Shown here: positions 3,400 through 64,000 of the stretch, in pieces
Layout of the letters: every line of letters starts with the position of its first letter
Position numbering within the stretch: the stretch's first letter is position 1
NCBI GenBank assembly: GCA_000004985.1
Contig: GG738904.1
DNA from: Naegleria gruberi
Lineage: Eukaryota
Strand: one strand, 5' to 3'
DNA: 64,000 nt
The notes under the pieces: model-generated
The model's database searches: none
What the model saw: the letters and a program-made list of their open reading frames with translations, nothing else
What the model was told of the DNA's origin: nothing
Made by a program: the position numbers and the translations under genes

Positions 3400-5454
3400 A
3401 TGATTCGCTCGGATTTGTTTTATACAGAGGAACAAACACCATCCTCTTCTATCAATATGGTGGATGATGATGTATTATTTTCATCAGCAGCAACAGACTC
3501 GTCATCTCATCATCAGCCTCCTAATCAGGACCCTAATGCTCCAATCGATATGAATATTTGGATGCTATCCGTTGNNNNNNNNNNNNNNNNNNNNNNNNNN
3601 NNNNNNNNNNNNNNNNNNNNNNNNAATTATTGTTAGGTATTTAGTGTTGGGTAAAAAACATTGATTAATTTATTCGATCCTGAGGAATACTTTTATTTGA
3701 GATTGTTTATCTGGGTTACTTATAATTTATGTTTTATAATGTTTGCACTTGTGTTGACTGCTCTAGTTGCTCCATCTGCTGAAGGATCTGGTTTGGCAGG
3801 TATTAAAGCTATTTTGAATGGTGTCAGAGGTTTAAAGGATGTTCTAAGTATGAAGACAATGATTGTGAAATATTTATCATTACCTGCAGTCCTTACAGCT
3901 GGTTTATATATCGGTAAAATGGGTCCTTCCATTCACATTGTCACTTGTGCTGCTAAGAATTTACTGAAATTTAGATTATTCGAGTCCATAAGAAAAACCA
4001 AAACTCTGAAACAAGAAATGATTGTATGTGGTATTGCTGTCGGTTGTGCAGCTAACGATGGTGCTGTCGTGGGAGGTGTATTGTTTGGAGCAGAGTTAGT
4101 TGGTACCTATTATTCTTTGAGAAACTATTTCAAGAGTTTTTATGCAGCTTTTATTGCCTGCATGACTTCTCGTTTATTGCACAGTGCTGTCAATTTGAAT
4201 ATCAAACCATTCTTGACATGGAATGTTAAGATTGTTCCTCCATCTTTCACTCTTCCAGAATTATTTTTCATGCTTTTTGTTGCCATTGTAATGTCTTTTG
4301 TTGGTATTGCAGTAGTCTTTGTCAATGAACAATTGCTTGTTTTGAGAGATAAATATGGTAAATTGCATCTTGGACCTTTCAAGTTTGCCAAGTATGCCAC
4401 TAACAAATTGGTAATTTTAACAGAAAACAGAATTATTTTCACAATTATTATTACTCTCGTTACTAGTTTCCTTTCATTCCCTCAAATGATTGGTAAATAT
4501 ATGAGTATTGGTGGTGTGCCTATTTTCGAAGAATTATTAATGGCAAAACCTTTAACAACAGTGAATGGCGCTAAGGGAGAATGGATTCAAGGAAATATTT
4601 CAGAAGTATTTATTACAATTTCTATATTTATTACTGTCAGATACATTTTGGCAATTCTTACAACAGTTTTGCCTGTTTCTGGTGGTTCATATTTGCAATT
4701 GTTGATTATTGGAGCTTCATTTGGTAGACTTGTAGGTGAAGGTCTTGCCTTTATTTTACCTGATGGTTTTAGTCCAAACCATCCGATTGTTCCAGCCAGT
4801 TATGGTCTTGTTGCTGCTGCTGCTTTGACTAGTTCACAAACGCAGGCCTTCAGTTCTGTATTTATTCTGCTAGAATTAACAGGTCATGGTGTTCACTTAC
4901 CTGCATTGGGAGCATCCTATATTGGAGTTGTTATTTCCAGATGGTTGTCTTACAGTGCCTATGACTTTGTTATCAAGTTTAGAAAATGGCCAGCTGTCCT
5001 TGAATCAACAACTGACTCTGACGATATTAGAGTTAAATACGTCATGCAATATGTTGATAGTTTGCCAATTTTGGAAGAAAAGGCAAGCTTGAGAAAGATT
5101 GGAGAATTTTTGGAAAAGCCAGATTTGGCCAAGACTATTCCAATTGTTAATAATAAGAGTGATTTACTTCTTGTTGGTTGTGTCAATACTAAGAAATTAC
5201 AAGATTATTACAATACTATGAAACCAACTCTTGAAGGCAATCCTGACTATGATACAGAAATTGAAATTGAAAAGAATACTTGTCCAATTACCATTTCTGA
5301 AGATACACCTCTCGTTTTAGCTCACTTACTCTTCTCCAAATTGAATTTGGATGACGTGTTCGTTGTTTGGAGAGGTCGTTTAATTGGTCAAGTTCAAAAG
5401 TCTAGTATTATTGCTGAGCTTACTGATAGAAATGCTGGTTTTGGTGATGCTTAA
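3400..5454 (+). CDS. CLC-family voltage-gated chloride channel/transporter with C-terminal CBS domains; N-terminal region interrupted by an assembly gap
   Basis: ORF 3661..5454 carries CLC motifs: GSGLAGIKAIL (GSGIPE-like), GKMGPSIHI (GKEGP-like), and PVSGGSYLQLLIIGASFGRLVGE (GxFxP block), followed by a CBS-like C-terminus. ORF 3400..3584 (acidic/Ser-rich) runs directly into the N-run and is probably the cytosolic N-terminus. Confidence 0.75.
3585..3624. other. Assembly gap (40 N)
   Basis: A run of 40 'n' characters. Confidence 0.99.
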
Positions 5455-6344: not shown

Positions 6345-9167
6345 TTACAAAGTGAGGACAACAGCATCAATTTCCTTACAGAATGTGTGGTAATCAATAT
6401 CGCCTCTTTCATCTTCGTAATGCTTTTGTAACACTCTGAGTTCCTTGTCATTCAAGTGGAACTTTAAGAAATCGAGAATAGAAGCAAATTGAGTTTTGGT
6501 AACACGAAGTTTTCTCAGCTTGTCATAGTCTTGGAAGTAGGCAGTTAAAATTTGTTGCATAACAGCAGCCTTAGTGGCAACCTTTTTAAGGATTGCATTC
6601 AATTCATTACCATCTACTTCGTTTGAGATTTCTGGAATATGAGATTTAAGAGGATAGCTTGGACGAGCTTGGAATGATTCTGCAGTCTTTGTTGGGAATT
6701 TTTCAAGTCTATTTTCAACAAAAGCTCTATCAACTTCTTCACAAAGTGATGTATAACTTATCAAATCTGGGTGAGCATCAACCTTGTAATAATCTTCCAA
6801 CAATTGAATTTCTTGTTCTGAAAGATTCAATTTAGCCATGCTAAGAGCAGTTCTAAACTTTGCCTTTGGAACGACATTGTGTCTCAATTTATCAAAATCA
6901 GCAAAGAATTCTTTCAATCTGGTTCTACTCTTAACAATATCAGACGTGGCCTTATAGATAACATTTGATATCTCTGTAGGAATTTGTTTTGGCACATCAG
7001 GGTTAATAAAGTTTTGAGAAACGGCCAACTCTAATTCCTTTACATAGACAGATTGATGGGTTCTGTCAACACGTTCATTCTTATCGACATCTTGAATAAA
7101 CTTGAAATAGTTTACATAGCCTGAAGTTGGTTCAAAATAGGCATTTTGAAGTAACCTGTAGTCTTCTTGGGTGAGGAAATTAAAAAGCTTATCAAGACAC
7201 TGTATAAACTGTGTTTCGCTTATTTTTCCTCTTCTTAACTTATCAAAATCTTCGAAATTTACTTTCATAGCAATACCTCTTGTCTTCACTGCATATTGAA
7301 GTTTGCCAAGTAACTCATCGAGCTTGTCCTCCATTGGTGTGTATGCTTTTTGTGGACCACGTTTTTGCATGGAATTTAAAGTAAAATCGAGAGGAGAAAC
7401 CAATTCTTTGGTTGGAACCTTTTCTAAATTCTTTTCAGTAATTACACTGTTAATTGTGTCACAAAACTTTCTATAGTTAACAAATCCTTTCTTCGTTGGA
7501 CTCTTAAATTCTGAAATGAGTTGTTCGTTCTCCTTATCTGTCATATCAATACCTCCCATATTTAAAGCACTTCTGAATTGTTTCTCTGTAATTTCATGAC
7601 TTCTAAGAGGGTCAAAATCTCTCATAAACTCTTCCAATCTTATTCTATTAACAAGGGACTTGAACGAAATATCCTCAAGTAATTCATCTAGCTCCTTTTC
7701 TCCCTTTGGACCTCTCTCCTTCTTTGGGAGATTACCAATAAGTTTAACATCATAGTCACGAGTATTAAAGTTACTATTTTGCAAAATTTCATCAACATCC
7801 TCGAGGAACATTTTGTAGTTTACATCTCCCTTACCAAGATCGTCATATTTTTCTTCAAGAATAGTATATTCATCTTGAGTTAAATTGATACCAGACATGT
7901 GAAGGGCTCTCTCGAATCTGGCCCTTGTAACGTGATCGGTGGAGTAGGTACCCTTCTTTGTTTTATCAAAATCTTGGAAGAATGGTTTCATGAAAACTCT
8001 TCTGTTGCTTACAATCTCACTGACCTTGTTAATAACATCGTTACATTTTTCTTCCTTTTCGCTCTCTAAATTCTTTCTATTAAGCTTGACAATATTGTTT
8101 TGTTGATGGAATTTCTTAGTTGGAAATTTTTCCAATCCCTTATCATTGAAAACAGAGTAAACATTATTCAAGAACTCTTGATATGATACTCTGGACTCGG
8201 AGTGATGATCTTCAGTTCTGTACTTTTCAGCCAACATGTCGAGCTGTGTTTGATTGAAAGCCATTTTGTGGAACTTTATGGCACCTAGTGTGGACATGAA
8301 TTGAGCTTTAGTGATAAAGCCAGTTCTTAATCTGTCAAAATCACGGAAAGATTCATCCAATTTAATTCTATATTTGATCAAAGCCTTTTTGATTTCCTTT
8401 TCAATTTCATCGACTTGTTCCTCAATTGAAGGGGTTGCTCTTTCGAATCTATAATCAGGATAGTCATCTATTTTAATTTCATTTTCAATTTCTTCATGGA
8501 ATCGGAGATAATTGATATCCCCTTTTTCATCTACATATCTATCAAGAATCAAGTGCAATTCTTCAGCATTCAGGTTTCTGAAAGGAATACATTGCAAAAA
8601 TTGAGATCTAGTAACAGCTCCATGATTAAGAGGATCAAAGTCCTTGAAGTAATTCTTAATAATATGGCCTTGAGTTTTGGCTTCCCATCTCAATTTTTCG
8701 TATAGAATATTTAATTCTTCAGTGGCTGAGAGTTGTGGTTTCTGTGATTTTAATAATTCTGTAGAGTTGAGAGTTTCCAATTTAGGATCTTTTTCCATTC
8801 CTTTGAGGGTAAATACTATTAAATGGTGTTATTAAAGATGTACATGTTATTGGATCAACATACCTTTATCGATTTCAGTAGCAAATTGAATATAATTCAC
8901 CTTATTGACGCTCGAATCAATAAACCTCGAAACAAGTTTATCAAAATCAGCATCCTTTAATTCCATTCCGAAAGAACTCAAACATCTTCTAAATTGAGGG
9001 ATTGATACAAATCCTGATCTCAATTTATCAAAGTCAATAAAAAACTCATTAATTCTTAGTCTTTTCTGCAAACACAATGTCCTGATAGTGTCCAACAATC
9101 CCTCTACACTAACATTCTTGCCTGATGAGAGTAACATTTTTTTTACTTTACGTAAATTAAAATTCAA
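6345..9167 (-). CDS. EF-hand-like tandem-repeat protein, about 920 aa, with 9 repeats of ~95 aa each carrying a degenerate Ca-binding loop D[FY]D.L..G.[IV][TS]..QF; 2 exons (9167..8847, 8798..6345)
   Basis: The repeats show recurring DFDKLR.G.V...QF ... VNY.KF..DVD motifs. ORFs 8847..9167 and 6345..8798 are joined by a 48-nt intron on the minus strand (GTATGTTG...TTTAATAG, plus coordinates 8799..8846). Confidence 0.7.
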
Positions 9168-9170
9168 AAC

Positions 9171-9182
9171 TTTTGGCGGGAA
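9171..9182 (+). promoter_or_regulatory. E2F-like site TTTTGGCGGGAA immediately upstream of the EF-hand repeat gene start (9167, minus strand)
   Basis: A canonical E2F consensus (TTTSGCGS). It is a GC-rich island in a >80% AT context. Confidence 0.4.
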
Positions 9183-9252
9183 CGAGTAATACAGTTATCG
9201 TTACGTTGATATCAAACCCCATCAACCTAATTTTAGTAATTTAAATTTGTTA

Positions 9253-9538
9253 TTATTGCTTTGGTGAGGTGAGAATGGATGAAATTCGATACATGTAATA
9301 ATAAAAAGCCATTATTCCTAGAACAAATAAGATAATTATCACTGTGGTCTTGTTCCGAAGTCCAATAGTTAATTAGTAATTTTGTTCAACTTGTACCTAC
9401 AGCAATATTCAACCATTTATCATAAGCTTCCGAAGATGATGAATCAGCATCTGCATGTTTTTCTCTGGCTAATGGTGCTGATTTGGAAGAAGAATCTTTC
9501 AATGATGTACTAGTATTTCGTCTATTTAATTCTTGCAT
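9253..9538 (-). CDS. Possible small tail-anchored membrane protein (~78 aa): Ser-rich N-terminus, a 51-nt intron, and a C-terminal TM helix VIIILFVLGIMAFYYYMY
   Basis: ATG at 9538 (minus strand) gives MQELNRRNTSTS...WLNIA, followed by GTAGGT...GAACAAG and then TTVIIILFVLGIMAFYYYMYRISSILTSPKQ*. It is below the ORF-track size cut-off and lies very close to the stop of the neighbouring kinase gene. Speculative. Confidence 0.2.
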
Positions 9539-9558
9539 TTTTTTACAATATTTTAAAT

Positions 9559-10362
9559 TCAATATCTAGAATCCTGCTCTGATAACAGTGTGTAGAGGAA
9601 TTTAAAGTCCTTTTCATTCTTCAATTTGTTAAAATCAGAAATAATACCATCGCCATTAGGTCCATCATTGGTTGCAACTCTATGTCTTGCCAATTCTTCA
9701 GTATTTCCAGTTCCGATATGTCTCTTGACAACTCTTTCCATTGCCTTAATTCAATATGAGATTTGAGATTGACATTAAATTACCTACCTCTTCCTTAGTT
9801 TGAGTATGGATATAAATCAAAATGTCAAACAATGGTGTGACATTTGGCCAAGTTGCCAAATAATTTCCTTCCACAATTATAATTGATTGATTGGCTTCTA
9901 CATGAATATCATCTTCAATGGGATCTCCAACACCATGATCAAAGGAAGGAGCACTCACTTTCTGATTAGGTGAATGTTTAATATTTTCCAATAAGTTTTT
10001 AAAAGCCAAATCATTAAAAGTAAATGGAGCTCCTCTATTAAATTAAATATTAATTATTAAATTAATAATTAAATAATTAATATTTACCTTCTACTGTGAG
10101 CATGTTTAGGATCTTCCATCATATCCAATTCCCTCCTATAATAATGAAATCCATCCATAGGAACGACCTGACAATTAATCTTCAACTCTTCAGTCAAATA
10201 CTTTTTCATATCCTGACAAACACTTGTCTTCCCTGAACCAGGTGTTCCAAAAATTCCAATTAATAATCGTTGTTTAATTTCCGATGGTTTTTGTTGTGAA
10301 AATTCCACCAATTGATGATCTTTGTTGATTTGATCCAAGAGTCCTTTAACCTTTTGCTCCAT
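9559..10362 (-). CDS. P-loop kinase of the phosphoribulokinase/uridine kinase family (YFH7-like); about 3 exons
   Basis: Walker A GIFGTPGSGKTSV, then VVPMDGFHYYR, RRGAPFTFND, SFDHGVGDP and IIIVEGNYL. ORFs 10084..10362, 9746..10009 and 9559..9741 join through minus-strand introns of ~53 and ~43 nt (GTAAAT...TTTAATAG and GTAGGTAATT...ATTAAG). Confidence 0.65.
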
Positions 10363-10431
10363 TTTTCTTTATTGACAGCGTATTATTGAAAATTAACAAT
10401 AAGCAAAAACAAAGACAATCCTGATTTTGTC

Positions 10432-10460
10432 TTGGCGCCAATTTTGTTTTTCGCGCCAAA
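10432..10460 (+). promoter_or_regulatory. Tandem palindromic E2F-like sites TTGGCGCCAA and TTTTCGCGCCAAA in the bidirectional promoter between the P-loop kinase (minus strand) and the Sfi1-like gene (plus strand)
   Basis: Two CGCGCC/GGCGCC cores 16 nt apart, within 70-130 nt of both start codons. Confidence 0.45.
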
Positions 10461-10589
10461 TTGTTACATTTATTTTTCAACTCTAAAAACAAATGCACAA
10501 CATCTAGGATCTTTATCATCAAATTAATATTTTAAAGAATTCAGTGATTGTATTGAGGACAACTAATTAATATTATTCAGAGCATAACA

Positions 10590-16846: not shown

Positions 16847-18883
16847 TTACAAAAAAGGATTGTCTTGGTTAAGGTAGTAATAAGTATCAAAAATAGTAGA
16901 TTGAAAGTGATCTGAGGGTAAACATGGAGGACCAATTGAGCTCCAACTGTAATAATGTTCATGCTCTCCAGAATCACAATAGAAACTCATTGACTTGGTA
17001 GCTCTCATAAATGTGAGTAGGTCTTGTTTCCTCTCCTCTGTTGCATAATTGAAAGCAGACCTCCTTGTAGAGACAGCAAGGCAAATCATTTGTTCATCAT
17101 TTCTAATTTCCTCTGGTGCATATTGTAACAATGTTCCATCGTACCTTAATGCAAATTTGTAAAATTCTCTATTGTTAAGATAGTAATCATCATTGTCAAC
17201 CTCATTAGTTTGTGTAATTGTGTCAGATATTAGGCCTAAATGGCCAACCTCAGAAAAGCTCTCATCTCCATCATAATCCAAAAACTCTGGCTCGTTTGGA
17301 TAATAACTAGAGCAAGGATCCACTAGTAATCTTCTGATAACTTGGACATATCTGTTAAATAATTGGTTAGGGAATGTAATATCTATAATATCAATGCCAC
17401 CTGCTAAAATATTACAAATATCCTTATCATTTAACAGTTCTAGATTTGCAAATTGGATAGCCCTAATATTCCTTCGTATAGCCACTAATACCACCTCTTT
17501 ATCCTTCTTCAATTCATCAGATGTATATTTCAAACTCATTGGAGATGTTTGTAAAGCTCTCATTACAATTTCCTTGTTGGCCGTAATTTTAGGCGAGCAA
17601 AATCTCAATAAATAACCACATCGACAAACTAGTCGTTCTCTTTCCAATTCATCATCACTACTCTTGTTGAACAAATCAATAAACTCATCTCTATTCCAAA
17701 TATTCTCATATCTTGAAGGTTCTTGTTCAATACTTTGTTTTTTCTGGGTAGTATTAAACTCTCTCAGGGCTGGATGTGATTGCACATGATCTGGTAACCA
17801 TGAGAAAATATCCGCATTATGTTTTAAAACATCTAATATCAGTTTGATATCTCCTCCAAATAGTGTAGTATCATTCAAAATGAAATTACTTAATTTGAAC
17901 ATTGGATGAATAGTAGAATCCCAAACTTTTCCTCCAATCTTCAATTGTTGAATTGTTATATCCCTATCTTGTTCAAACTCAACTGGTATTCTATACTTTT
18001 GAAATACTGATAAACCAACAATGCTTACATTTTGTAAGCACTTTAGGATTAGATCTTTTGTAATAAGATCTTTTTTGAGATGGATCCAATCCAATCCTCT
18101 TTCCACACAACTAATCACAAGATCCTCTTGGGTTATGAACTTTTTAAATGCATACAATGCCTTTGGGAATTTTGAAATGATTCTTTTCATGAACGGTTCA
18201 CTTTCCAAAAGACGATTCGAAACAGAATGAAGCAACACGTAGTAAATATCAGAGGGTTTGTAGATTCTCTCAACCACACTCAAACAAAATGCTTCATCAT
18301 CCAATGCTTCAGGTGATACTTGAGAAGATAAAGAACAATTAGCCATTAGACAATGTGCAATAATTTCAGGATCTTTCCTAAATACAGAACTATTCACCAT
18401 GAAACTAGCAATCGAATCAGCATTAGATTTAACAGCTGCAAGAGCTATTTCTCTATCCACCTTGAACTTTTCAGGTAAAAAAGCAAATTCACTTCCACAA
18501 TTCCTAACACATTCCAATAAAACTTGTCTATCATCATAATCGAAAGGTAAATTCCTAATTATTCCTGGTTTTCCAAATTTAGCCAATTTAAGAAGTACTA
18601 ATCGGAAGGGCACACAAGAATTAATTGTATTCCCGTGAAAACTATTGATAGTTGCCAATTTTTCTTCCTTTAATTTATCCAAAAACCACAACAAAGCCCT
18701 CTCCAACTCAAATTGCCTGTCGTTTGCTTGTAACATTCGCCTTCCGAGCTTTTCCTTTAGTAATTGGGCATGAAAATTATTCTTGCTGAGAACAGTTTCC
18801 TTTGAAAATGGTAACACAACAACGTCTATATCTTGAAGTAATTGAAACATTTTTTTTAAAAACAGGGCAATAAAGTTCATCAT
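16847..18883 (-). CDS. Hypothetical protein with DUF4116-like repeats
   Basis: Repeated segments of type REIALAAVKSNADSIASF / KEVVLVAIRRNIRAIQFAN / EQMICLAVSTRRSAFNYAT / KEIVMRALQTSPMSLKYTS. The gene lies in tandem with the upstream helicase-like gene. Confidence 0.45.
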   Translation of the reverse strand: MMNFIALFLKKMFQLLQDIDVVVLPFSKETVLSKNNFHAQLLKEKLGRRMLQANDRQFELERALLWFLDKLKEEKLATINSFHGNTINSCVPFRLVLLKLAKFGKPGIIRNLPFDYDDRQVLLECVRNCGSEFAFLPEKFKVDREIALAAVKSNADSIASFMVNSSVFRKDPEIIAHCLMANCSLSSQVSPEALDDEAFCLSVVERIYKPSDIYYVLLHSVSNRLLESEPFMKRIISKFPKALYAFKKFITQEDLVISCVERGLDWIHLKKDLITKDLILKCLQNVSIVGLSVFQKYRIPVEFEQDRDITIQQLKIGGKVWDSTIHPMFKLSNFILNDTTLFGGDIKLILDVLKHNADIFSWLPDHVQSHPALREFNTTQKKQSIEQEPSRYENIWNRDEFIDLFNKSSDDELERERLVCRCGYLLRFCSPKITANKEIVMRALQTSPMSLKYTSDELKKDKEVVLVAIRRNIRAIQFANLELLNDKDICNILAGGIDIIDITFPNQLFNRYVQVIRRLLVDPCSSYYPNEPEFLDYDGDESFSEVGHLGLISDTITQTNEVDNDDYYLNNREFYKFALRYDGTLLQYAPEEIRNDEQMICLAVSTRRSAFNYATEERKQDLLTFMRATKSMSFYCDSGEHEHYYSWSSIGPPCLPSDHFQSTIFDTYYYLNQDNPFL

Positions 18884-19228: not shown

Positions 19229-19310
19229 TGATGTAACAAATACACGTAGATGTCACCAAATCAAGCATACCTAAAATGGTGCTACATGGCTGGTGAGTTG
19301 GGAACCCCAG
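19229..19310 (+). repeat. Copy A of an ~82-bp direct repeat (ATGTAACAAATACACGTAGATGT...GCTGGTGAGTTGGGAACCCCAG)
   Basis: About 92% identical to 20868..20950 in the same orientation. The two copies flank gene 19393..20793. Confidence 0.8.
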
Positions 19311-19392
19311 CAGATTTTACCTACACTCCAAACACCAGAAACCAGAAAGTTGTTGAAAAAGTATTAAACAAGTACCAGAGTTCCATTTAAAT

Positions 19393-20793
19393 TCATTTGC
19401 TGTTTTTATTTTTGTGTTCCTTAAATATAGTGAACAACTGAGGTAGTTCTGTATATGCATATTTCATAATTGGACGGTGCCAGGTGAAAAGTGATTCATC
19501 ATTTGTGGATTGACCAAGAATATTTTGCTCAACAAGTTTTGAACAAATTTTCCTATGTTGAGCTGTTGATGGAAAAAATGAATTATTTCCAGCAATGAGA
19601 TCCAAGACGTCAACTATTTCACCTCCTTCGTTATCATAGATTATCCCTATTATGTTTGCTAATTCTATAGCTTCTGTTCGAATCATTCCATCAACAACTT
19701 TCTTAATGTCTTCAGCTGGTACTTGAATGTGACCATTAACAATATCGGAAATAATTTCATTATGAGGTTTTGATTTCAGAGAAGGGTGATGATCTTGCAT
19801 AATGGGGATCAATTCTTTAAGTACACTATAAATCTGGCCAAAGTGGCCTCCTAATTTCTTGATATCATCATTTCTCAGGAATGGATATTGCTCTAATTCA
19901 GTTTGGGTGGTGTAAGAAAACGTGTACTTCTTCAGTCTAGATGTGTGTCCAGATAATTTCCTTAAATCTGTGAAGGTGGAAAAGTTGCTAGAGACATGGA
20001 CACCAGTGGCCAATTGCTCCTCAACGAATTGAAGTAAGTTACCGGCTATTATTTTACAATCGGGGTCGTTGGCTATATAGTCACTTACAACAATAATAGA
20101 AACAGGAGTACCATAGTTAGCTTCCTTCTTTAGTTGTTGCAAAATGTTTTTCAGGGCAACCATTATTCTGGCAATTGGAACGTCAGATTCGTCTGTTCTT
20201 CTTTGGCTGATCCCAAGTGCAAGAAGAATGTTTTGGTATGGCATATTCGCTCTCAATGGAATGTATATTACATTTCTTCTATTTTCCAGTGCTTTCTCAA
20301 CAGACATTGATTTTCCAGAATTAGATGGACCACTGATATATGCCAACTGATTAACGCAGTCGTATGAAAACATTGCACCAAGTACTTCTGATCCTGCTTT
20401 AGGCAACAATTTCATACCATTAATCATTGGTGTAGTTGGTATGAATGGTTGTGCGAGCTTTGATCTAATTTCCTTCTCAAGAGGCAAATACTCGTTGTTT
20501 TGATTATCTTCATGAATACCTGTAAGAATGTTATAAGTTTGATAAGCACTCAAGACGGAAAAGATAATGGCCAGAGAACCTGACCAAGTGATCCATATGT
20601 TTGTGAATTTCTTCCAATTGCTTTCTTTTCCTTCTTCGTTGGACCCTTGGTCAAAGTTTCGCAAGTACCGTGTCATATGAAAATGTTTGCTAGGTGTAGG
20701 TTGTTTAAAGGTGAAAAATTGTGGTGCACAACACTTGCAATTGTTGACGAATGTTACAAGTCTCACTAGTCTTAATCTGCCCAATATTTTCAT
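19393..20793 (-). CDS. P-loop NTPase with an Arg-rich N-terminal presequence-like segment and one TM helix (possible mitochondrial membrane ATPase); family unclear
   Basis: Walker A ISGPSNSGKSM and a Walker-B-like IIVVSD. An N-terminal TM helix WITWSGSLAIIFSVLSAYQTY follows MKILGRLRLVRL. The ORF is single and intact. Confidence 0.55.
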   Translation of the reverse strand: MKILGRLRLVRLVTFVNNCKCCAPQFFTFKQPTPSKHFHMTRYLRNFDQGSNEEGKESNWKKFTNIWITWSGSLAIIFSVLSAYQTYNILTGIHEDNQNNEYLPLEKEIRSKLAQPFIPTTPMINGMKLLPKAGSEVLGAMFSYDCVNQLAYISGPSNSGKSMSVEKALENRRNVIYIPLRANMPYQNILLALGISQRRTDESDVPIARIMVALKNILQQLKKEANYGTPVSIIVVSDYIANDPDCKIIAGNLLQFVEEQLATGVHVSSNFSTFTDLRKLSGHTSRLKKYTFSYTTQTELEQYPFLRNDDIKKLGGHFGQIYSVLKELIPIMQDHHPSLKSKPHNEIISDIVNGHIQVPAEDIKKVVDGMIRTEAIELANIIGIIYDNEGGEIVDVLDLIAGNNSFFPSTAQHRKICSKLVEQNILGQSTNDESLFTWHRPIMKYAYTELPQLFTIFKEHKNKNSK

Positions 20794-20867
20794 TTTTTTT
20801 TATTTTTTTCACAAGTGTTAGAGCACAAGATAAAGTACTTTTTGCTGGAAGCTTCTTAAAAACGACT

Positions 20868-20950
20868 ATGTAACAAATACACGTAGATGTAACCTAATCA
20901 AGCATACCTAAAAAAATGGTGTTACATAGCTGGTGAGTTGGGAACCCCAG
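20868..20950 (+). repeat. Copy B of the ~82-bp direct repeat
   Basis: See copy A; identical orientation. Confidence 0.8.
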
Positions 20951-21346
20951 ATATTCTTTACATTAATGTCCTCTTACAATATTGATTTAGTTATAAGCGC
21001 ATTGTAATCTCAACCATCTAACCAAAGTTTCTCAAATACGAACAAGCTACGTAATTCTTCGAACGCAAATTTTACAATAAATTACAGTTCTTTACAAAGA
21101 CCTAAGGAGGTTCCCAAAATGCATGATTCTCATATGTTCCTTCTCCTGTACTGTCAGAAATTAAATTGACAGTACCCAAACAAACACAGCACAATCCAGA
21201 GTAACGATAACCAATATCCATATTTATCCAATATCTGCCCGTTTCTCCTCAAACAACAACCAGTTCTAAAACACATTTAAGGAAGCATGCAACGAATCTC
21301 TCAAAAACACAACAAAAAAAAATCCCTCAACAACAAATTGAAAGAA

Positions 21347-22123
21347 ATGAATCCATTCGCTGCTTCTCTCCTTGTTGCATGTTTATTCATGCTGGCCATG
21401 ACTGTTCAAGTTTTTGCCATCAAAATTTCCAAACCAAATGCAGGTCAAAGAACATTGATCACAGATTCTCTCTCAATTGATATTGAGGGCAATCAGAATG
21501 TTCCCAAGTTTGGTTATTCGTTTGCTAATGATAGCAGAATTCAAGGATTTAAGGTTCAATTTGCTAGAGCTTCTCAGACCGATTCTGATCACAATGAAAT
21601 TCCTTCAACTAATATTGCATTGGCTAGTTTGAATTATGATTTTAGTGAATTTGTTACCAATTCTGATAATTCTGTTGATTTTAATATTACATCGAGTGGT
21701 GGAAATCCAACTTTCCAATTTCGTATTCATGTCAATTCCACCTCTAAATCATTCAAGTTTGACACTGTCATTTCTGGAGTAACTTGGAATAATAAGGCTG
21801 CTTACTTGTCATTGTGTTATAAGGTGTTAGATAGAGATTCTGGTAATGGAATCAATGCTGCTAATTCAACTTCAACTCGTGCTTCATTTGGAAAGGGATA
21901 TTTCGATATTGAGCCACGTGCTTTGGCAATCAATGGAACAAGTGTCAAGGCAGGTTTGAGAAATTCTGGTAATACCATTTGTGTTGAATATGAAAAGTGG
22001 GATGGCACTTTGGTGCATGATCCAACTCTTGGATACTCAACAAGTGTTTCAGTTTCTTTTGCAAGTGCCAATTCATTTTCCTTGCTTGTAGTTCTTGTTG
22101 CTTTAATTGCATCACTTTGGTAA
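21347..22123 (+). CDS. Predicted GPI-anchored surface protein (signal peptide plus C-terminal hydrophobic GPI signal)
   Basis: The ORF runs from 21287, but the likely start is the internal Met at 21347 (MNPFAASLLVACLFMLAMTVQVFA). It has a Ser/Asn-rich ectodomain with N-glycosylation sequons and a C-terminal SFSLLVVLVALIASLW tail. Confidence 0.5.
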   Translation: MNPFAASLLVACLFMLAMTVQVFAIKISKPNAGQRTLITDSLSIDIEGNQNVPKFGYSFANDSRIQGFKVQFARASQTDSDHNEIPSTNIALASLNYDFSEFVTNSDNSVDFNITSSGGNPTFQFRIHVNSTSKSFKFDTVISGVTWNNKAAYLSLCYKVLDRDSGNGINAANSTSTRASFGKGYFDIEPRALAINGTSVKAGLRNSGNTICVEYEKWDGTLVHDPTLGYSTSVSVSFASANSFSLLVVLVALIASLW

Positions 22124-25142: not shown

Positions 25143-26354
25143 TCATTTTTCTAATGTATTGCATTGTTTCTTCTCAACAACAAGATAACTAAGATGATGA
25201 TTCATTGTTTCACTCAAAAGTTTAGCACCATCTTCCATTTGAATTCCAGTATTGTAAATTGAAAGAGAAACTAATTGATATAGTCCACAGAGGTGTTTAA
25301 TACCTTCATCAGTAATATAATTTCCATTAAGATTAAGATTGGTCAATTGTTTCATTTCACCAATAAATTCAGCTCCTTCCTCACGAATATTATTCGAACG
25401 AATGTCAAGATTTGTTAAATATTTCATTTCACTAATATATTTAGCACCTCGATTACTTAGATAATTTTTACCAATATCAAGCTTAATCAATTGTTTCATT
25501 TCACTAATGTATTTAGCACCATCATCCCCAATTATATTTTTACGAATATTAAGATTGGTCAACTGAGTCATTTCACTCACTAATTTTGCTCCCTCAACTC
25601 GAATATTATTATTACTAATATTGAGATCTACCAATTGATGCATTCTCATTAAATGTTCAATGCCTTGATCACCAATACGATTTCCACCAACATTAAGACT
25701 GGTCAATTGTTTCAACGCACCAATGAATTTAACTCCTCTAACACCGATTTCATTATAATAAATATTGAGATGTGTAAGTTGTCTGATTCCATTACAGATG
25801 AATTTGGATCCATCTTCTCCTATCTTATTATGAGAAATGTCAAGATATGTCAATTGTTTCATTTTGCTAAGATATTTGGCTCCTTCTGAACTAATCCTAT
25901 TATACGAAACATTGAGCTTTGTTAATTTTGTGAGATTGCTAATATAAGAAACGCCTATATCACCAATATTATTCATTTTCATGTCAAGATCTACCAATCG
26001 ATTCTTCATCATTGCAGAAAATATTTTACAATCAAAAATAGTTTCGTTTCGTTTCTCCACTATTAATATTTCAATATTTTGAAGTAATTGACCTTTCAGT
26101 TTGTTATCATTTCTGCAAGTTAAAGAAAATCTTGATCTTTCCGAAATGACATTCAACCACTGTTTAGAAATTAGAGTACAATTTAGAATAAATTTAACAT
26201 CAAGAAATGATAAAATTTCAAAAATTGAATCATCTGAAAAGATGAGCAGAGAGTGTTTCAATTTTCGTTTAACTTTCGAATAGGATGTACTCGATGATTT
26301 GCTTGTTGTCTTTATGCGCATTTTTCTTTTAAATCTTTCTATTCGAAAGTGCAA
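25143..26354 (-). CDS. F-box / leucine-rich repeat protein (RNI-like LRRs)
   Basis: N-terminal F-box-like segment LLIFSDDSIFEILSFLDVKFILNCTLISKQWLNVIS, followed by about 11 LRR units of ~24 aa of type L..L.I..N.IG..GAK.ISEMKQLT. Confidence 0.7.
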   Translation of the reverse strand: MHFRIERFKRKMRIKTTSKSSSTSYSKVKRKLKHSLLIFSDDSIFEILSFLDVKFILNCTLISKQWLNVISERSRFSLTCRNDNKLKGQLLQNIEILIVEKRNETIFDCKIFSAMMKNRLVDLDMKMNNIGDIGVSYISNLTKLTKLNVSYNRISSEGAKYLSKMKQLTYLDISHNKIGEDGSKFICNGIRQLTHLNIYYNEIGVRGVKFIGALKQLTSLNVGGNRIGDQGIEHLMRMHQLVDLNISNNNIRVEGAKLVSEMTQLTNLNIRKNIIGDDGAKYISEMKQLIKLDIGKNYLSNRGAKYISEMKYLTNLDIRSNNIREEGAEFIGEMKQLTNLNLNGNYITDEGIKHLCGLYQLVSLSIYNTGIQMEDGAKLLSETMNHHLSYLVVEKKQCNTLEK

Positions 26355-52310: not shown

Positions 52311-53073
52311 TGATAATCAGCTGAGGATAGATTTGATCTTTTCAATGACATTTTTTCTATTGCCACATCAACTGTTGAAAATATTGATTCCTCTTTAATG
52401 TTTGAAATGCTTCTTGCTTTGAAGAATGATGACACTAGTATTTTGTGGGAAAATATGTATCAATCCATTCTCAAACTTCATCAATTGTTGGCCGCCGAAA
52501 GTGTTTCAAACTCATTCTCTAGAATGGTAAAAGATTTGGTTAAAAACAAGTATGAATCAATTGGATGGACCAATGTACCAGGAGCAGATGAAGATGAGGA
52601 AAATCTTGATGAATTACGTCCATCTCAATTTGGCCTGTCGTTTTGGTCTCACTGAATGTGTCACTGAAGCCTTTAAACGTTATCAAGAAAGAAACTCAAC
52701 CATTATTCCTCCAATTCTTCGTAATGCTGTTTATAGAGCTGTTGTTTCTAATGGTGGAGAACGTGAATATTATCAAATTTTGAATCAATTCAAAGCTGAG
52801 CAAGATTCTGTGGAAAGAACCAAGTTAGTGTATGCAAGATTCCACTCTTGCAAACGACCTTGGATTTGGCCCTTTCTCCACCATGTTAAGCCACAAGATA
52901 GTATCTTCCTTATTAGAGAAGTTGCAAGAAATGTACCAAGTGGACCAAACGTTGCTTTTGTCAGAACTAGATATGATGCCATTCTCTCAAAATGTGGACA
53001 AGATCAAGTCAGTAATAGATTATCATATGGGGTTGGTTCTCTATTCACTAATATCTTTGAAAGGGATGAATAG
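52311..53073 (+). pseudogene. Remnant of an M1-family (aminopeptidase N/ERAP1-like) aminopeptidase: C-terminal helical domain only, with a +1 frameshift near 52620-52635
   Basis: ...LACRFGLTECVTEAFKRYQERNSTIIPPILRNAVYRAVVSNGGEREYYQILNQFKAEQDSVERTKL aligns with aminopeptidase N [63 protein letters not shown]. The upstream frame (52311..52655) matches the preceding part of the same domain but lies in a different frame. No catalytic HEXXH or GAMEN domain is present anywhere upstream. Confidence 0.55.
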
Positions 53074-53103
53074 ATTCAATATTTTGCTCCAAATATTGAA
53101 AAA

Positions 53104-53688
53104 TTGAGCATGAAGCATTATTATATTAGTGGAATGAAACAATTAACATTACTTAATATTGGGAACAATCAAATTGGTGTAGAAGGATCCAAATTCATAC
53201 ATGAAATGAAACAATTAACATCACTTGATATATATTATAATGAAATTGGTGTAGAGGGATCCAAATTCATAAGTGATATGAAACAATTAACATCACTTAA
53301 TATTAATTACAATCGAATTGGTGATGAAGGAGCCAAATTTATAAGTGAAATGAAACAATTAACATCACTTGATATTTATAACAATGAAATTGGTGTTGAA
53401 GGAGTCAAATCAATAAGTGAAATGAAACAATTAACATCACTTAATATCAGTGGAAATCAAAGTGGTGCCGAAGGAGTCAAATTAATAAGTGAAATGAAAC
53501 AATTAACATCACTTAGTATTAATTACAATCGAATTGGTGATGAAGGAGTCAAATTAATAAGTAAAATGAAACAATTAGCATCACTTGATATTAGTGGAAA
53601 TGGAATTGGTGATGAGGGAGCCAAATTAATAAGTGAAATGAAACAATTAAAATCGCTTAGTATTCATAACCAACAGATGTTTAAGTAA
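53104..53688 (+). CDS. LRR-only protein or gene fragment: 8 near-identical 24-aa RNI-type leucine-rich repeats encoded by a 72-bp nucleotide tandem array
   Basis: Units of type EMKQLTSLDIYNNEIGVEGVKSIS repeat with high nucleotide identity. There is no F-box, unlike the paralog at 25143..26354. It may be a truncated or recently expanded copy. Confidence 0.5.
   Translation: MSMKHYYISGMKQLTLLNIGNNQIGVEGSKFIHEMKQLTSLDIYYNEIGVEGSKFISDMKQLTSLNINYNRIGDEGAKFISEMKQLTSLDIYNNEIGVEGVKSISEMKQLTSLNISGNQSGAEGVKLISEMKQLTSLSINYNRIGDEGVKLISKMKQLASLDISGNGIGDEGAKLISEMKQLKSLSIHNQQMFK
53131..53660 (+). repeat. 72-bp-period tandem repeat array (about 7-8 units) forming the LRR coding sequence
   Basis: High nucleotide identity between units (GAAATGAAACAATTAACATCACTTGATAT...). 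Confidence 0.7.
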
Positions 53689-53793
53689 AATCCAAAAAAA
53701 AGGATTTGGCCAGACTCTGCCTCACACTCATTATAATAACTGTTAAGATTCTACTCTTTTTTTTTACTTAATGTATCTAAATCTCTGCCCATT

Positions 53794-56051: not shown

Positions 56052-59000
56052 ATGCAAGACGATAAATCATCAATTCCCGAAGGTGTCGTTGCTGATGAAG
56101 AAACAAATCCAACTATTCCAGGACATGAATCCACCATTGAACAAAATCCTTCTTCAACGGAGGAGAGCAAAATGACCTATCCAACACTCCACAAAAGTTT
56201 GAAGAAATCTTTCAGTCAAATTGTGTCTTGTGGAGGAAGTTTTGTTTGTTCTGATAAGTTTGATGGTGTGACACTTCCTGGATTGGAATTACTTGTTTCT
56301 GCTGCTCAAGATTCTGATAAGAAATATAAAGCAATGCCCTTTCCGATTGTTTATAAAGAGCAAGCTGATGAAATTATTAGAATTGCAAAGAAATCACCTT
56401 ATGGAAAGGGAGAGGAAACAATTTATGATGACAATGTGAGAAATTCCTATGAATTGGAACCAAATCAATTTAGAATTACAAATACAATGTGGCAAAAAGA
56501 ATTAAATCAATTATTGGAAACAAAAATTAAAAGTGGACTGGGAATTGACAAGTACAAGAATGTGGAATGTAAATTGTACAAATTACTATTGTATGAAAAA
56601 GGAGGACATTTTGAATATCACAAAGATTCTGAAAAAGAATGTAAACAAACATGCACATTGGTTATTATTTTACCATCCATCTTTGAAGGAGGAGAATTCA
56701 AAATCAAACACAATGATTATGAAATGGAAATTGCCACAACAAATGATTATGCAACTGAGTGAGTATTATAGTATGAACAATTTATTGAAAATTAATTTCA
56801 AATCTCCCATTATTGAATTTAATCATGATGAATTCTTGGCAGTTGTCATTTCATTTCATTTTACTCTGATTGTGATCATGCTGTTATGCCACTCACAAGT
56901 GGATACAGAACTTGCCTTATCTATAATATTATTGTAACAACTCATCAAGAAAATCAGCAATTATCCATTGCAGATAATCATGTACATTCTGAAAATGTAA
57001 GAGAACAATTATCAGAGTGGTTGAAAACTGATTTGTCCAAGAAACCATTAGTTTATTTGCTGGAACACGAATATACAACAGAAAGTTTAGTTTTTGGATG
57101 TGAAAATTTGAAAGGAAATGATTACAAAATTTATTCTGCACTCAAAGCATCCAAATTGCCATTGCTCTTGTTTCCATCTTTCTTTACAAAACGTGTTAAT
57201 GAAGGGTTTAGTGATGATGATTTCTTTGAAGAGGGAGTGTTTTTAACCATCTCTAAAATGTACTTTGATGAAAAGGCAATACTTTCCGATGTCTCTGTTT
57301 CGCCATCTCAGGTTTTTTCATTTCCAGGAAAAGATATGAAAGATATGAAACTAACAAAGTCAACTGAACATCAAACAGGTAAGTACGAGAGAATTATTTA
57401 GATAGTTAATCATTCTAACAGGAAATTATGGAACTCAATCATCTAAATGGTATCAAAAAACATGCTTGATCATTTCTTCTAATCAATTTAGTTCAATTGT
57501 GGAGCTAGGATTTAATTTTGGTATGAACTACTTTGAATTTCTTTCTAAAGCTGAAAGTGAGCAGATTAACGAATTTTATGAATCATTTACAAAGGAAGAA
57601 TGGAAATTACCATACAGACATACTATTAGCAAGCAAGAGATGTTCGTAATGACATTAATTAAAACTGGCAAGAAAGATTTGACCAAAAAATTCCTTGAGG
57701 AAGAGTGTAGCTCGGCCTCAATCACAGCAAAAGCTTTAAAACAATGTTTGAATGTATTTGAAGACCAAGAGTTTAAACAGATTGTTTTTCAATATTGTAT
57801 TGATAGTTTAACAAATCTTGAACACGGACATAAGCTTGATATTGATGAATACTTGGAAGCACTAGAGCCGTTCGTTACCCCTAAAATGGTAAACTATATT
57901 GAAACACAGCTGGTCAAATCAGTCGATTCAATCCGTAATCTAAACTCATTCTACTTATTTTGTGAAAAAAAGCGAGACAAATTTAGTTATACATTTAATA
58001 AGGGTTAGTTTTCTACATTTATTTCAATGCTCACCCTATTTAGATTTATTTTTACCGATATTTAGATCTCTTTATAGCCAATTAAAACACTGCAAAGCTC
58101 AATATTTTCCTCTTTGTGACACTTATATGTGTGAGGAATTTGTAAAAGGTACAATAGAATTCTACTTTAACAATGATTATAATAGAGGTTTACAACTCAT
58201 TCAAAAGTATGGATACAATACATTTGATCCAAATAAGGTTTTTTCAGTTTTGAACCCATCCCATTATTTTGAAAATTACAAAAAAGATATTGAAGACAAT
58301 GAGTTGAAATTGTTCTATTCTGGATTTAGAAAATACATGATTGAAAAACGATTACTTGATAACCGATCTGAGAGAGAAGTAGTTCTCAAACATTTACTCG
58401 AAAAAGAAGAGTATGAAACTCTCTTGCATACTTTGAAAACCTATAATAAGAATGTCATTAGTAATATTTATATTTTGGATAGATTTCTAAAGAATTTCAA
58501 ACCAATAGTTGATAATACTATATTGCAACAATGGATTAATATAACGCAAATGTGTATCTCCTCTATTAAGGGAGGCTTGTCTAGAAGCTATATTGAAATA
58601 TTAACCTACAAACTTCCTCACACTTTGCCATGCACTTGTGAGCTGTGTGCATCTGTACAAAAGTTTTTAAAGAGTTCTAAAGACTCCTTTTCCAAAATTG
58701 GAGTTTCTAAAACAAGCTATGATCACGTGAAAAGTTATTTGGAAAAATTAGAACGTTTGAGTCAATATTGGTCAAATGAAAAATTAACGATTAACAAGAG
58801 TGGTTATTCTAGCAAATATAGTGAAAATATTATGAGATATGCTTTAGAAAACCTCAATGAATTATTACAATTTTTGATCCACCACCAAACTGATAAAGAC
58901 TCTAGACCTCAATTTAGCTTTACAAGAATTACAGCATCTAGCCCAGCTGGAGAAGAGAGTGTAAAAAGAGAAGCAGAACGGGTAGAGAAAGAGAAGAAAG

Positions 59001-59728
59001 AAAGACTCGAAAGGGAAGAAGCCAAAAAAAGAGAAGCAGAAGAAAAGCTACTTCAAAAGAAAAAATTGGAAGAAGAAGCTCTGCTTAAAAAGAAAAAACG
59101 AGAGGAACAAAGATTACTCAAAAAGAAACAAAAAGAAGAAGAAAATAGACTCAAGAAAGAAAGAGAGGAAGAAGATAAAGAACTTCGTAAAGTTGAAAAA
59201 GAGTTAAAGAAGAGGAAGAAGGAAGAGATAAAAAAGGAGCAGCCAACACCAGCCAGCTCAAGTCAATCCAGCTCAACAATTAATACTCAATCACATACTG
59301 TACAAGGTACCAATTCAGCAATTCAAACACAACCAATAGTTCCACAGCTTACATGTCAACTGGGAACAGTTTATTCTCAAATGCAGGGTATGCCACTTGT
59401 TCCAATCTCAGGTAATCTTATCCCACCTAACTTGGTTAATTTAAATACTTTTTTTAAAATGAAGAATGACATCCAATTATCCCAATACTTTAGCACGGCT
59501 ATGATTTGGACACCATTATCTACACCTCCAGAGCTGATCACTTTATCTGCTAATTGGGTTTCTCAATATTTATGCACTGCTGTACAAATTTCACCTAGTC
59601 TTTACTTTTTGTTGATGCCAATTCAAAGATATTTTCAAACTTCCCCAACTGATTTGCGTTTCATTTCTATTGTCACAGATTTGAAAGGAATTCAAATGAT
59701 ACTTGCTCCAATAGTTAAAAAAGAATAG
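56052..59728 (+). CDS. Multi-domain protein (about 1170 aa) with an N-terminal prolyl-4-hydroxylase-like 2OG-Fe(II) oxygenase domain, a long C-terminal region with a K/E-rich coiled coil, and a Ser/Gln-rich tail; 4 exons (56052..56758, 56843..57378, 57422..58003, 58044..59728)
   Basis: Facial triad and 2OG-binding residues: GGHFEYHKD ... DCDHAVMPLTSGYRTCLIYN (HxD...H...R). Introns of 84, 43 and 40 nt (GTGAGT...TTGGCAG; GTAAGTACGA...CTAACAG; GTTAGTTTTC...CTATTTAG) join ORFs 56052, 56886, 57466 and 57962 in frame. Confidence 0.6.
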
Positions 59729-59744
59729 TTTTCAACACAGATGT

Positions 59745-59800
59745 TTACATTTAATTAAGGATGATGACAGGTATAATAAAGGAATAGTCCAATAATTATC
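59745..59800 (-). repeat. Duplicated ~56-bp fragment of the 3' end (TM-tail coding segment) of gene 60564..61520
   Basis: About 93% identical to 60570..60625 in the same orientation. On the minus strand it would encode GIIIGLFLYYT..., the same C-terminal TM tail as gene 60564..61520. Confidence 0.6.
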
Positions 59801-63871: not shown

Positions 63872-64000
63872 ATATATAAACCAATTTTGTAATAATATTG
63901 AAAATTTAAAAAACACGTGTTTAATTTTCTTCAATTTAACACAAACAAGGCAAAAAATGTTTAAATTTAGTCATCATCAAAATATTAACAACAGTTCGGA

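Follow-up and report, generated by a model that had tools for sequence, protein, structure and literature searches.

Several described systems place direct repeats on the two sides of a discrete DNA segment. In LTR retrotransposons and TRIMs, an interior is bounded at both ends by direct repeats of like orientation. Insertion of an element can also duplicate its target; the 49-bp target duplication of the trypanosome SLACS retrotransposon is unusually long, and we know of no eukaryotic transposon class for which target duplications of 65–85 bp are the rule. Templated insertions likewise create nearby copies, which in other organisms are usually shorter than about 50 nt. In Leishmania, direct repeats flanking genes reportedly give rise to circular amplicons; those repeats are said to be hundreds of bp long and to occur genome-wide.

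Here, we analyze a pair of direct repeats that brackets a single ATPase gene in Naegleria gruberi and compare it with these systems. The analysis covers a window of 64 kb, that is the whole stretch of DNA under study, together with 19.5 kb of related loci from metagenome contigs (L001–L005).

A two-copy direct duplication around one gene

Copy 1 of the repeat (80 nt, positions 19231–19310) lies within the 509-bp spacer that extends from the stop codon of the ATPase gene to the start of the DUF4116 gene NAEGRDRAFT_73389. Copy 2 (83 nt, positions 20868–20950) occupies the spacer from which the ATPase gene and NAEGRDRAFT_73391 diverge; neither copy is assigned a strand of its own. Both have the same orientation, with a start-to-start spacing of 1637 bp, and BLASTN aligns them over 83 columns at 91.6% identity, with four substitutions and one 3-nt AAA indel. 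The first-pass annotation had described 82-bp direct repeats, about 92% identical, lying about 80 bp outside each end of a single-exon gene and spanning about 1.64 kb, a description that holds with small corrections to the repeat lengths and limits.

The edges of the repeat are sharp: the flanks of copy 1 and copy 2 fail to align, with one doubtful exception on the right side, where 11 of 15 positions match beyond a CAG indel. The unit reads ATGTAAC...CCCCAG, with TG and CA one base inside each boundary, and its GC content (0.39–0.44) is above that of most spacers in the window. The junctions of copy 1 carry ATG/ATG and CAG/CAG doublets, and no microhomology that is shared and used once was seen at either repeat junction.

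The bracketed gene, NAEGRDRAFT_73390 (19393–20793, minus strand), encodes 466 aa in a single exon, and the ORF is identical to the deposited single-exon JGI/NCBI model (XP_002671643). Its 3' flank, from the stop codon to copy 1, measures 82 bp (19311–19392, minus strand), with AATAAA immediately after the stop codon and, on direct reading of the sequence, no poly(A) run at the junction with copy 1. The 5' flank, from the ATG to copy 2, measures 74 bp (20794–20867, minus strand) and has an A-rich tract immediately 5' of the ATG. The interior between the repeats (19311–20867, 1557 bp) resembles a complete minimal transcription unit. Both flanks are similar in length to many whole spacers of the window, which measure 57–120 bp; the genome is compact, with a median inter-ORF gap of 194 bp.

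We conclude that the pair is a real, old, local two-copy direct duplication around one gene. Three further origins were considered and rejected. Copy 2 is not an assembly artefact because an independent metagenome contig (L004) holds it in the same context; in addition, the two copies differ by 8% and the only run of Ns in the window lies at 3575–3624. A residual tandem gene duplication was discarded, as tblastn found no other ATPase-like remnant in the window and the sequences beside copy 1 bear no relation to those beside copy 2. A foreign origin of the gene was likewise set aside, its GC (0.365) and GC3 (0.323) falling inside the range of neighboring genes. As a true direct duplication around one gene, the pair is, trivially, the recombination substrate that had been suggested for it: unequal or single-strand-annealing recombination between the copies could delete or tandemly amplify the ATPase gene. 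This potential is the only mechanistic consequence of the pair.

The enclosed ATPase

The N-terminus of NAEGRDRAFT_73390 is basic and acid-free, with nine K/R and no D/E in residues 1–47, and the best hydrophobic segment follows at residues 66–84. Further downstream are a Walker A motif (GPSNSGKS, 155–162), a Walker B-like motif (IIVVSD, 233–238), a conserved SGHTSR motif (281–286) and a C-terminal winged-helix-like module. Read from the sequence, these features agree with the putative presequence, membrane anchor and P-loop that had been noticed at first pass. The protein is probably mitochondrial.

The ATPase family had earlier been called not obvious. A Pfam profile search gave no match at the curated threshold, the only hit being AAA_22 at 15.1 bits (cut-off 27, E = 0.029), and neither ATPase_2 nor RNA12 reaches threshold. 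In two distant homologues, RNA12 also falls below its cut-off of 27 bits (P0038, 17.9 bits; P0043, 23.8 bits), and a profile search against the PDB returned matches at the level of the P-loop only. The family can now be placed with the help of a predicted structure. Single-sequence prediction was useless (pLDDT 38), whereas an AlphaFold2 model built on a 17-sequence alignment reached a mean pLDDT of 77.6 and a pTM of 0.70. Foldseek against the PDB matched this model to Drosophila Orc1 (7jgr_A, E = 1.5e-7), MalT (8bob_C), human Orc4, Apaf-1, archaeal Orc1/Cdc6 (2v1u) and CED-4, with E-values of 1e-7 to 1e-5 and a probability of 1.0 for those listed. TM-scores are only about 0.3, because domain orientations differ. 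The model thereby identifies a predicted AAA+ ATPase of ORC/Cdc6/STAND-like fold, with an ATPase core, a helical lid and a winged helix. The Walker A and B motifs and this predicted architecture are common to the ATPase and to the ORC/Cdc6 and STAND (Apaf-1/CED-4/MalT) proteins.

Another point of comparison is Yme2, which PMC9284673 describes as a mitochondrial inner-membrane protein with RRM and AAA+ domains. The ATPase resembles Yme2 in that a presequence-like N-terminus and a single membrane segment accompany an AAA-type domain; unlike Yme2, it has no RRM and no RNA12 match.

The family is rare and patchy, with 18 matches among 1.84 billion representatives, none of which could be attributed to another named Naegleria species; outside N. 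gruberi and its close relative, members were found on short environmental contigs only. Within N. gruberi the gene is single-copy, without a paralogue. The homologues on contigs L001 and L002 (48% amino acid identity) and L003 (32%) have other neighbors, and these contigs contain neither flanking direct repeats nor repeat-like sequence. As a very rare, predicted membrane-anchored AAA+ ATPase without a characterized relative, the protein is of modest separate interest.

Copy number, mobile-element hallmarks and change between strains

Exact 22- and 23-mers taken from the repeat ends occur at two sites only in the window (none expected in 100 shuffles). No more diverged third copy was detected in the 64 kb, either by BLAST with 7-nt words or by an nhmmer profile search with --max, and apart from the L004 orthologue none was present in the 19.5 kb of related loci. 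The exact 22-mer had no match in IMG/VR, and JGI metagenome contigs matched neither the 22-mer nor a two-anchor gapped pattern of the repeat. Literature searches covering repeats, direct repeats, MITEs and snoRNAs of Naegleria yielded nothing relevant to the element.

The pair resembles LTR retrotransposons and TRIMs in having two same-orientation terminal direct repeats around an interior, with TG and CA near the ends of the unit. Unlike these elements, it measures only 80 bp, below the usual length of LTRs, and its ends are not inverted repeats of each other, so that short inverted 5'-TG...CA-3' termini are lacking. At the inner edges, with the plus-strand sequences CAGATTTTACC and AAAAACGACT (minus strand, AGTCGTTTTT), we found neither a PBS nor a PPT, and no TGG-initiated tRNA complement. 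The interior encodes no gag/pol, recombinase or reverse transcriptase; it is a host-type AAA+ gene. Terminal inverted repeats, as expected of a MITE or cut-and-paste element, are absent from the ends of either copy, and the two flanks of each copy share nothing. A search for a target-site duplication outside the repeats likewise gave nothing convincing, and no clear 4–6-bp duplication was seen: the outer flanks GAATATG and ATATTCT share ATAT at a 1-nt offset, a weak match in AT-rich DNA. The gene is intronless, yet at the 3' junction GTAGGTAAAATCTG runs directly into CTGGGG with no poly(A); with no poly(A) at the downstream repeat and no paralogue in N. gruberi, a processed retrocopy was rejected. 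Of the proposal that the segment is a small mobile or duplicated cassette, the duplicated part is trivially right. The mobile part is not supported: inverted termini, PBS/PPT, poly(A), and recombinase or reverse transcriptase are absent, no target-site duplication is convincing, GC3 is normal, and the homologues have no flanking repeats.

The metagenome contig L004 derives from a very close relative and carries the ATPase gene with copy 2 in place (L004 1311–1396). Copy 2 and its orthologue differ by 3 substitutions in 83 nt (3.6%) and a 3-nt insertion, the adjacent non-repeat spacer differs by 4 in 104 (3.8%) and a 4-nt indel, and dS for the ATPase gene is 0.035; a five-fold constraint on the repeat would predict about 0.6 changes. 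Because its divergence matches that of the flanking spacer and of synonymous sites, the repeat appears to drift neutrally and to be under no detectable constraint, three substitutions also being compatible with weak constraint. Counting substitutions, the two copies in the window are 5% apart, a little above the divergence of the strains, which fits a duplication that predates the strain split; the presence of copy 2 in L004 requires that order. Deletions beside copy 2 in L004 have junctions that share ACAAT and ATTT; the locus is prone to microhomology-mediated rearrangement. Among clusters of the neighboring proteins, no related-strain contig spans copy 1, and the contig from the same sample, L005, covers only 61752–64000.

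The window holds a second pair of this type, at 59.7–60.6 kb: 66 nt at 92% identity, 821 bp apart, in the same orientation and with a sharp edge. One member, out of context, copies the end of NAEGRDRAFT_52827: its last 20 codons, its stop and a few 3'-flanking bases. A 66-nt unit of the pair lies at 59741–59805. More generally, direct local seed matches outnumber inverted ones (13 clusters versus 3, with about 2 expected in shuffles), and among these clusters only the ATPase-flanking pair and the 66-nt pair extend.

Origin of the pair

A functional cis-element or small RNA kept in two copies, such as a promoter or UAS serving both 73390 and 73389 on the minus strand, or an RNA that resembles a snoRNA with one hairpin, appears improbable. 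Each copy does sit, in like orientation, 5' of a minus-strand gene, the window copies share an identical 23-nt hairpin (GCTGGTGAGTTGGGAACCCCAGC), and ATGTAAC, present twice in copy 2 and in its L004 orthologue together with one GTTACAT, may be a binding motif. However, the distances to the two ATGs differ five-fold (about 75 bp for the ATPase, about 350–380 bp for the DUF4116 gene), the hairpin is broken in the L004 copy by a GGT insertion and a G>T change, and the repeat evolves at a neutral rate between strains. No Rfam 15 family reached its gathering score anywhere in the window; relaxing the cut-off to E ≤ 10 gave a single nearby match, snR48 at 20779–20877 (26 bits against 60, E = 3.1), overlapping 10 nt of copy 2. 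ARAGORN found no tRNA genes in the window, and inspection of the repeat revealed no C/D, H/ACA or Sm-type boxes. Single-sequence folds of the two strands gave z-scores of −0.8 to −1.9, and in the best minus-strand fold three of the four inter-copy differences disrupt base pairs. RNAalifold, applied to three sequences and so of low power, detected no compensatory pairs, and its covariation term was positive for either strand. These results speak against the shared regulatory or ncRNA element that had been raised as a possibility, and nothing found marks the pair as an RNA gene or a mobile cassette. A duplicated plus-strand mini-exon or small ORF deserves almost no weight. The plus strand of the unit does offer an acceptor-like ACGTAG, an open stretch of 43–49 nt and a donor-like GGTGAGT; the ATG of copy 1 opens a 46-codon ORF (19250–19387), and splicing to an AG at 21285 would put ATGGTGTTACATAGCTG in frame with the 73391 ORF. 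Of six substitutions that distinguish the three sequences, three are synonymous in frame +1, and each of the two indels is an in-frame change of 3 nt, but for a single frame, uncorrected for six, such a synonymous count arises by chance with a probability of about 0.15. Furthermore, codon 2 is TAA in copy 2 and in L004, the candidate acceptor at 21285 has no pyrimidine tract, and a plus-strand gene would require a 1.66-kb intron containing the whole antisense gene. The deposited 73391 model begins with MNPF at 21347 and has its own signal peptide, and the 278-aa and spliced 284-aa forms are both missing from the protein collection. With the deposited model starting downstream and the synonymous pattern not significant, a first exon of 73391 or a small ORF in the repeat was rejected. 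It is also quite unlikely that the two copies belong to a dispersed family of short repeats (resembling a SINE, a MITE or a solo LTR, or forming a common spacer module) and fell in neighboring spacers by chance. Short interspersed elements typically are discrete units of about this length with sharp edges; the TG/CA near the boundaries and a GC content above that of most spacers point the same way, and the search for further copies covered 64 kb of the 41-Mb genome plus 19.5 kb of related loci. Against such a family, profile and metagenome searches gave no third copy, random scatter would put two copies within 1.64 kb in the 64-kb window with a chance of only about 5%, neither single copy has terminal inverted repeats or surrounding target duplications, and inspection found no convincing pol III A/B boxes.

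The account that we favor, tentatively, is that some 80 bp of spacer DNA underwent a single old, local and selectively neutral duplication during repair or replication. Most likely, one copy would have been synthesized from the other, about 1.6 kb away, during break repair or a replication template switch (a templated insertion); here we infer both the copying mechanism and which copy was the source. Outside spacer DNA a new 80-bp insert would not survive, and the closest alternative spacer is on the far side of the 1.4-kb ATPase gene. The repeats would then bracket the gene 'precisely' because the genome is compact and spacers are the sole tolerant sites nearby. Support for a local duplication comes from the restriction to two copies in 64 kb, their shared orientation and sharp edges, the lack of transposon hallmarks or RNA signal, the neutral drift between strains, the microhomology deletions in L004, the excess of direct over inverted local seed matches, and the 66-nt pair as a second event of the same type. 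The main rival, which we consider unlikely, is a long target-site duplication, with the gene-sized fragment 19311–20867 inserted between 73389 and 73391. Nicks staggered by about 80 bp, or single-crossover integration of a circle sharing an 80-bp segment, would be followed by fill-in or recombination that leaves the target sequence on both sides. Between the repeats lies exactly one gene with spacer-sized flanks, removal of this interior with one repeat leaves a plausible 765-bp divergent spacer, and the gene is single-copy in a rare, patchy family whose L001–L003 homologues have different neighbors. The second pair can likewise be read as a 754-bp insert with 66-bp repeats, whose removal restores a 12-bp convergent spacer. 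Conversely, such an insertion would have come without a poly(A) tail, terminal inverted repeat, recombinase or reverse transcriptase, the GC and GC3 of the gene are those of its neighbors, and the arrangement is already present in the sister strain. The near-symmetric placement of the repeats (82 and 74 bp from the gene) and the gene-like interior also fit a gene-sized insertion, which the 66-nt pair fits equally well. Highly improbable, in our estimate, is a broader version in which Naegleria inserts or relocates gene-sized segments by an undescribed route that leaves 65–85-bp target duplications, with two footprints in this window and the ATPase unit as an excisable or amplifiable single-gene cassette. 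In one form of that route, small circular DNAs would integrate and excise by recombination through the shared 80-bp segment.

As it stands, the pair matters little: it is another local duplication of low copy number from a protist, and its main use is to mark the kinds of small rearrangement (templated copies, microhomology deletions) that shape Naegleria spacers. Were it the scar of a gene-sized insertion with a long target duplication, recurring genome-wide, then a free-living relative of the brain-eating amoeba would relocate genes by a route not known so far.

Among known systems, templated insertions and micro-duplications attributed to polymerase-theta end joining or FoSTeS/MMBIR share with the pair a short, non-tandem, same-orientation copy within a few kb, sharp edges, no transposon hallmarks and neutral evolution afterwards, and microhomology deletions occur at the locus in L004. 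The Naegleria copies differ from them in length, their 66–83 nt lying at the long end and exceeding most of those reported, and in showing no single-use junction microhomology. Target-site duplications such as that of SLACS resemble the pair in that direct repeats of host sequence immediately flank a discrete segment; here, in contrast, the segment holds a gene of ordinary host type and lacks reverse transcriptase, endonuclease, poly(A) or other 3' tail, and visible site specificity. Compared with gene amplification in Leishmania, Naegleria has here a single 80-bp pair of 92% identity; as in Leishmania, gene-bracketing, low-copy direct repeats in a discoban protist could in principle give rise to a 1.64-kb circle or a tandem array.

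The repeat pair and its setting

The direct repeats that the first-pass annotation described around a single-exon ATPase gene are real, with coordinates slightly corrected. Copy 1 (19231-19310, 80 nt) lies 82 bp past the ATPase stop codon, and copy 2 (20868-20950, 83 nt) lies 74 bp ahead of the ATPase ATG. Aligned over 83 columns, the two copies show 91.6% identity, four substitutions and a single AAA indel. The duplication has clear limits and a low local copy number: its edges are sharp on either side, the 100-nt flanks on each side being unalignable; the 22- and 23-mers at its ends are found at the two copies only (0 expected in shuffles); and a third, more diverged copy is absent from the window by BLAST with 7-nt words, by self-BLAST and by an nhmmer profile search with filters off.

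The ORF between the copies, NAEGRDRAFT_73390 (19393-20793, minus strand, 466 aa), is 100% identical to a deposited Naegleria gruberi predicted protein encoded on a 297-kb scaffold, and the window is nuclear DNA of that species. On one side lies NAEGRDRAFT_73389 (16847-18850, or 18883 at its widest; minus strand), which encodes a 667-aa DUF4116 protein, and on the other NAEGRDRAFT_73391 (21347-22123, plus strand, 258 aa). GC content across the window is 30-38% and genes are densely packed, with a median ORF-to-ORF gap of 194 bp and many gaps of 57-120 bp (ORFs of at least 150 aa).

The DUF4116 repeat protein is without a close homologue; its top match is 23% identical, many matches are bacterial or metagenomic, and the sole named heterolobosean match, from Willaertia magna, is weak. 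Elsewhere, the only assembly gap in the window is one run of 50 N (3575-3624), distant from the repeats, and a 43-nt AT-only near-perfect palindrome (TAAATATTAATTATTAAATTAATAATTAAATAATTAATATTTA, 10044-10086) lies inside the ORF-free stretch 8799-10589. Two leucine-rich-repeat arrays with 72-nt (24-codon) units, located in different genes (25296-25946, minus strand; 53053-53742, plus strand) and 66-78% identical to each other, are members of a large N. gruberi F-box/LRR_6 family.

Age and neutral drift of the repeat

A very close relative is represented by L004, a 2143-bp contig of ENA metagenome ERZ929261 that was reached via a 106-aa fragment in the 90% cluster of gene 73391. This contig carries 410 ATPase codons, the 74-bp spacer and copy 2 in conserved position, and stops short of copy 1. 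It is 95.7% identical to window positions 19559-20980. Another contig of that sample, L005, matches 61752-64000, around the V-ATPase A subunit gene, at 98.9% identity; the repeat locus therefore belongs to a genomic region that evolves faster or is more polymorphic.

Copy 2 differs from L004 by 3 substitutions in 83 nt (3.6%) and one 3-nt insertion, the adjacent non-repeat spacer by 4 substitutions in 104 nt (3.8%) and one 4-nt indel, and the ATPase gene by a dS of 0.035 and a dN of 0.019, with two in-frame indels. The repeat therefore evolves at the local neutral rate; under strong constraint ~0.6 changes would be expected in it, versus the 3 observed. The substitution difference between copies 1 and 2 is 5%, slightly above the strain divergence, as fits a duplication older than the strain split.

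Relative to the window, L004 is missing 20981-21190, 21282-21648 and a small piece near 21244-21260. The deletions adjoin copy 2, their junctions share ACAAT and ATTT, and they look microhomology-mediated. They take the start and 5' half of NAEGRDRAFT_73391, leaving a 106-aa ORF.

Origin of the pair

The window contains just one other extended non-coding repeat, a second event of comparable type: a same-orientation pair of 66 nt at 59741-59805 and 60560-60625, 821 bp apart, with 92% identity and a perfectly matching 36-nt core. Its copy B comprises the last 20 codons, the stop and a few 3'-flank bases of NAEGRDRAFT_52827 (ORF 60564-61520, minus strand), and its copy A is an out-of-context duplicate 12 bp after convergent ORF 57962-59728 terminates. 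No ORF with an initiation codon exceeds 55 aa in the 754-bp interval separating copies A and B. Local 14-mer matches form 13 direct clusters versus 3 inverted (~2 in shuffles); among them only the 80/83-nt and 66-nt direct pairs extend beyond the seed. Taken together, the second pair, the L004 deletions and the excess of direct matches show that the locus undergoes small microhomology-type rearrangements and short local copying, a habit that probably holds genome-wide.

Our preferred, if tentative, explanation is one old, neutral, local duplication: ~80 bp of spacer would have been copied to a site 1.6 kb away while a break was being repaired or when replication switched template. In so compact a genome an 80-bp insert survives in spacers alone, and the nearest other spacer lies beyond the adjacent 1.4-kb gene, so that bracketing one gene is the expected geometry and not the sign of a cassette. 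We infer both the copying mechanism and the identity of the source copy. Mechanistically, the pair would matter only as a place where recombination could delete the ATPase gene or amplify it in tandem.

An ordinary neutral local duplication is the best reading of the pair, the main alternative being insertion of a 1557-bp gene-sized fragment, via staggered nicks or single-crossover circle integration, with a long target-site duplication. We consider this unlikely. The interior does resemble a minimal transcription unit, and the ATPase gene is single-copy, belongs to a rare family and has homologues with different neighbours elsewhere; however, no empty site is known, the insert has neither tail nor enzyme, the composition of the gene is ordinary and no class is known to make such long target duplications as a rule. 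The mobile cassette proposed earlier finds no support: the repeat unit lacks terminal inverted repeats, no target-site duplication accompanies either single copy (outside the pair, the flanks share just an offset ATAT), no primer-binding site or polypurine tract was found at the inner edges and no poly(A) run at the 3' junction of the gene, and no reverse transcriptase, transposase or recombinase is encoded between the copies. Less probable than the insertion is that the copies are two members of a dispersed repeat family, given that transposon hallmarks are missing and the ~83 kb of sequence available contain no other copy.

It is improbable that the unit works as a promoter module or encodes a small RNA. 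Change at the neutral rate argues against the regulatory element suggested by the first-pass annotation, and structure signals for its ncRNA are absent: Rfam gave 0 matches at gathering score in the whole window, and at E<=10 the repeat was touched just by 10 nt of a chance-level snR48 match; ARAGORN found no tRNA; fold stability on both strands was no better than in shuffles (z-scores -0.8 to -1.9); and RNAalifold on three sequences (both window copies and L004) gave 0 compensatory pairs on either strand, the sole hairpin identical in both window copies being broken by the L004 changes. Least credible, and very improbable, is a plus-strand mini-exon or small ORF. On its plus strand the repeat unit holds a splice-like ACGTAG, a 43-49-nt open stretch and then GGTGAGT. 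When that frame is read across the three sequences, 3 of the 6 substitutions come out as synonymous, and each of the two indels spans 3 nt; but the synonymous pattern is not significant once six frames are allowed for, codon 2 is a stop in two of the three sequences, and the deposited 73391 model begins downstream. The splice-like motifs within the repeat are probably due to chance. Plus-strand motif and ORF positions are 19250-19387 and 20916-20939, and copy 1 has a 46-codon ATG-initiated ORF.

The enclosed ATPase

The ATPase family, not obvious at first pass, is very small: HMMER, run exhaustively over 1.84 billion cluster representatives, found 18 relatives, each of them on a short environmental contig, and Pfam gave a sub-threshold AAA_22 match alone. 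AlphaFold2, run on the alignment of relatives, gave a confident model (pLDDT 77.6, pTM 0.70) that combines an alpha/beta ATPase core with a helical lid and, at the C-terminus, a winged-helix-like module. Walker A is at residues 155-162 and a Walker B-like IIVVSD at 233-238, and most aligned family members share an SGHxxRL motif. Between N. gruberi and L004, dN/dS is ~0.54 and the ORF stays open despite its indels; differences concentrate in the N-terminal half, and residues 238-380 are identical.

Residues 1-47 form a basic stretch in which no acidic residue occurs, residues 66-84 make up a hydrophobic segment, and several homologues likewise start with a hydrophobic segment. It is plausible that the protein carries a putative mitochondrial presequence and, after it, a membrane anchor.

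Foldseek against the PDB matched the model to Orc1, Orc4, Cdc6, MalT, Apaf-1 and CED-4 at E-values of 1e-7 to 1e-5, with TM-scores of just ~0.3, and the predicted fold is ORC/Cdc6/STAND-like. Two distant homologues have sub-threshold matches to Pfam RNA12 (Yme2). Yme2 is described in PMC9284673 as a mitochondrial inner-membrane AAA+ protein, and we take this similarity as a lead for the ATPase rather than as membership.
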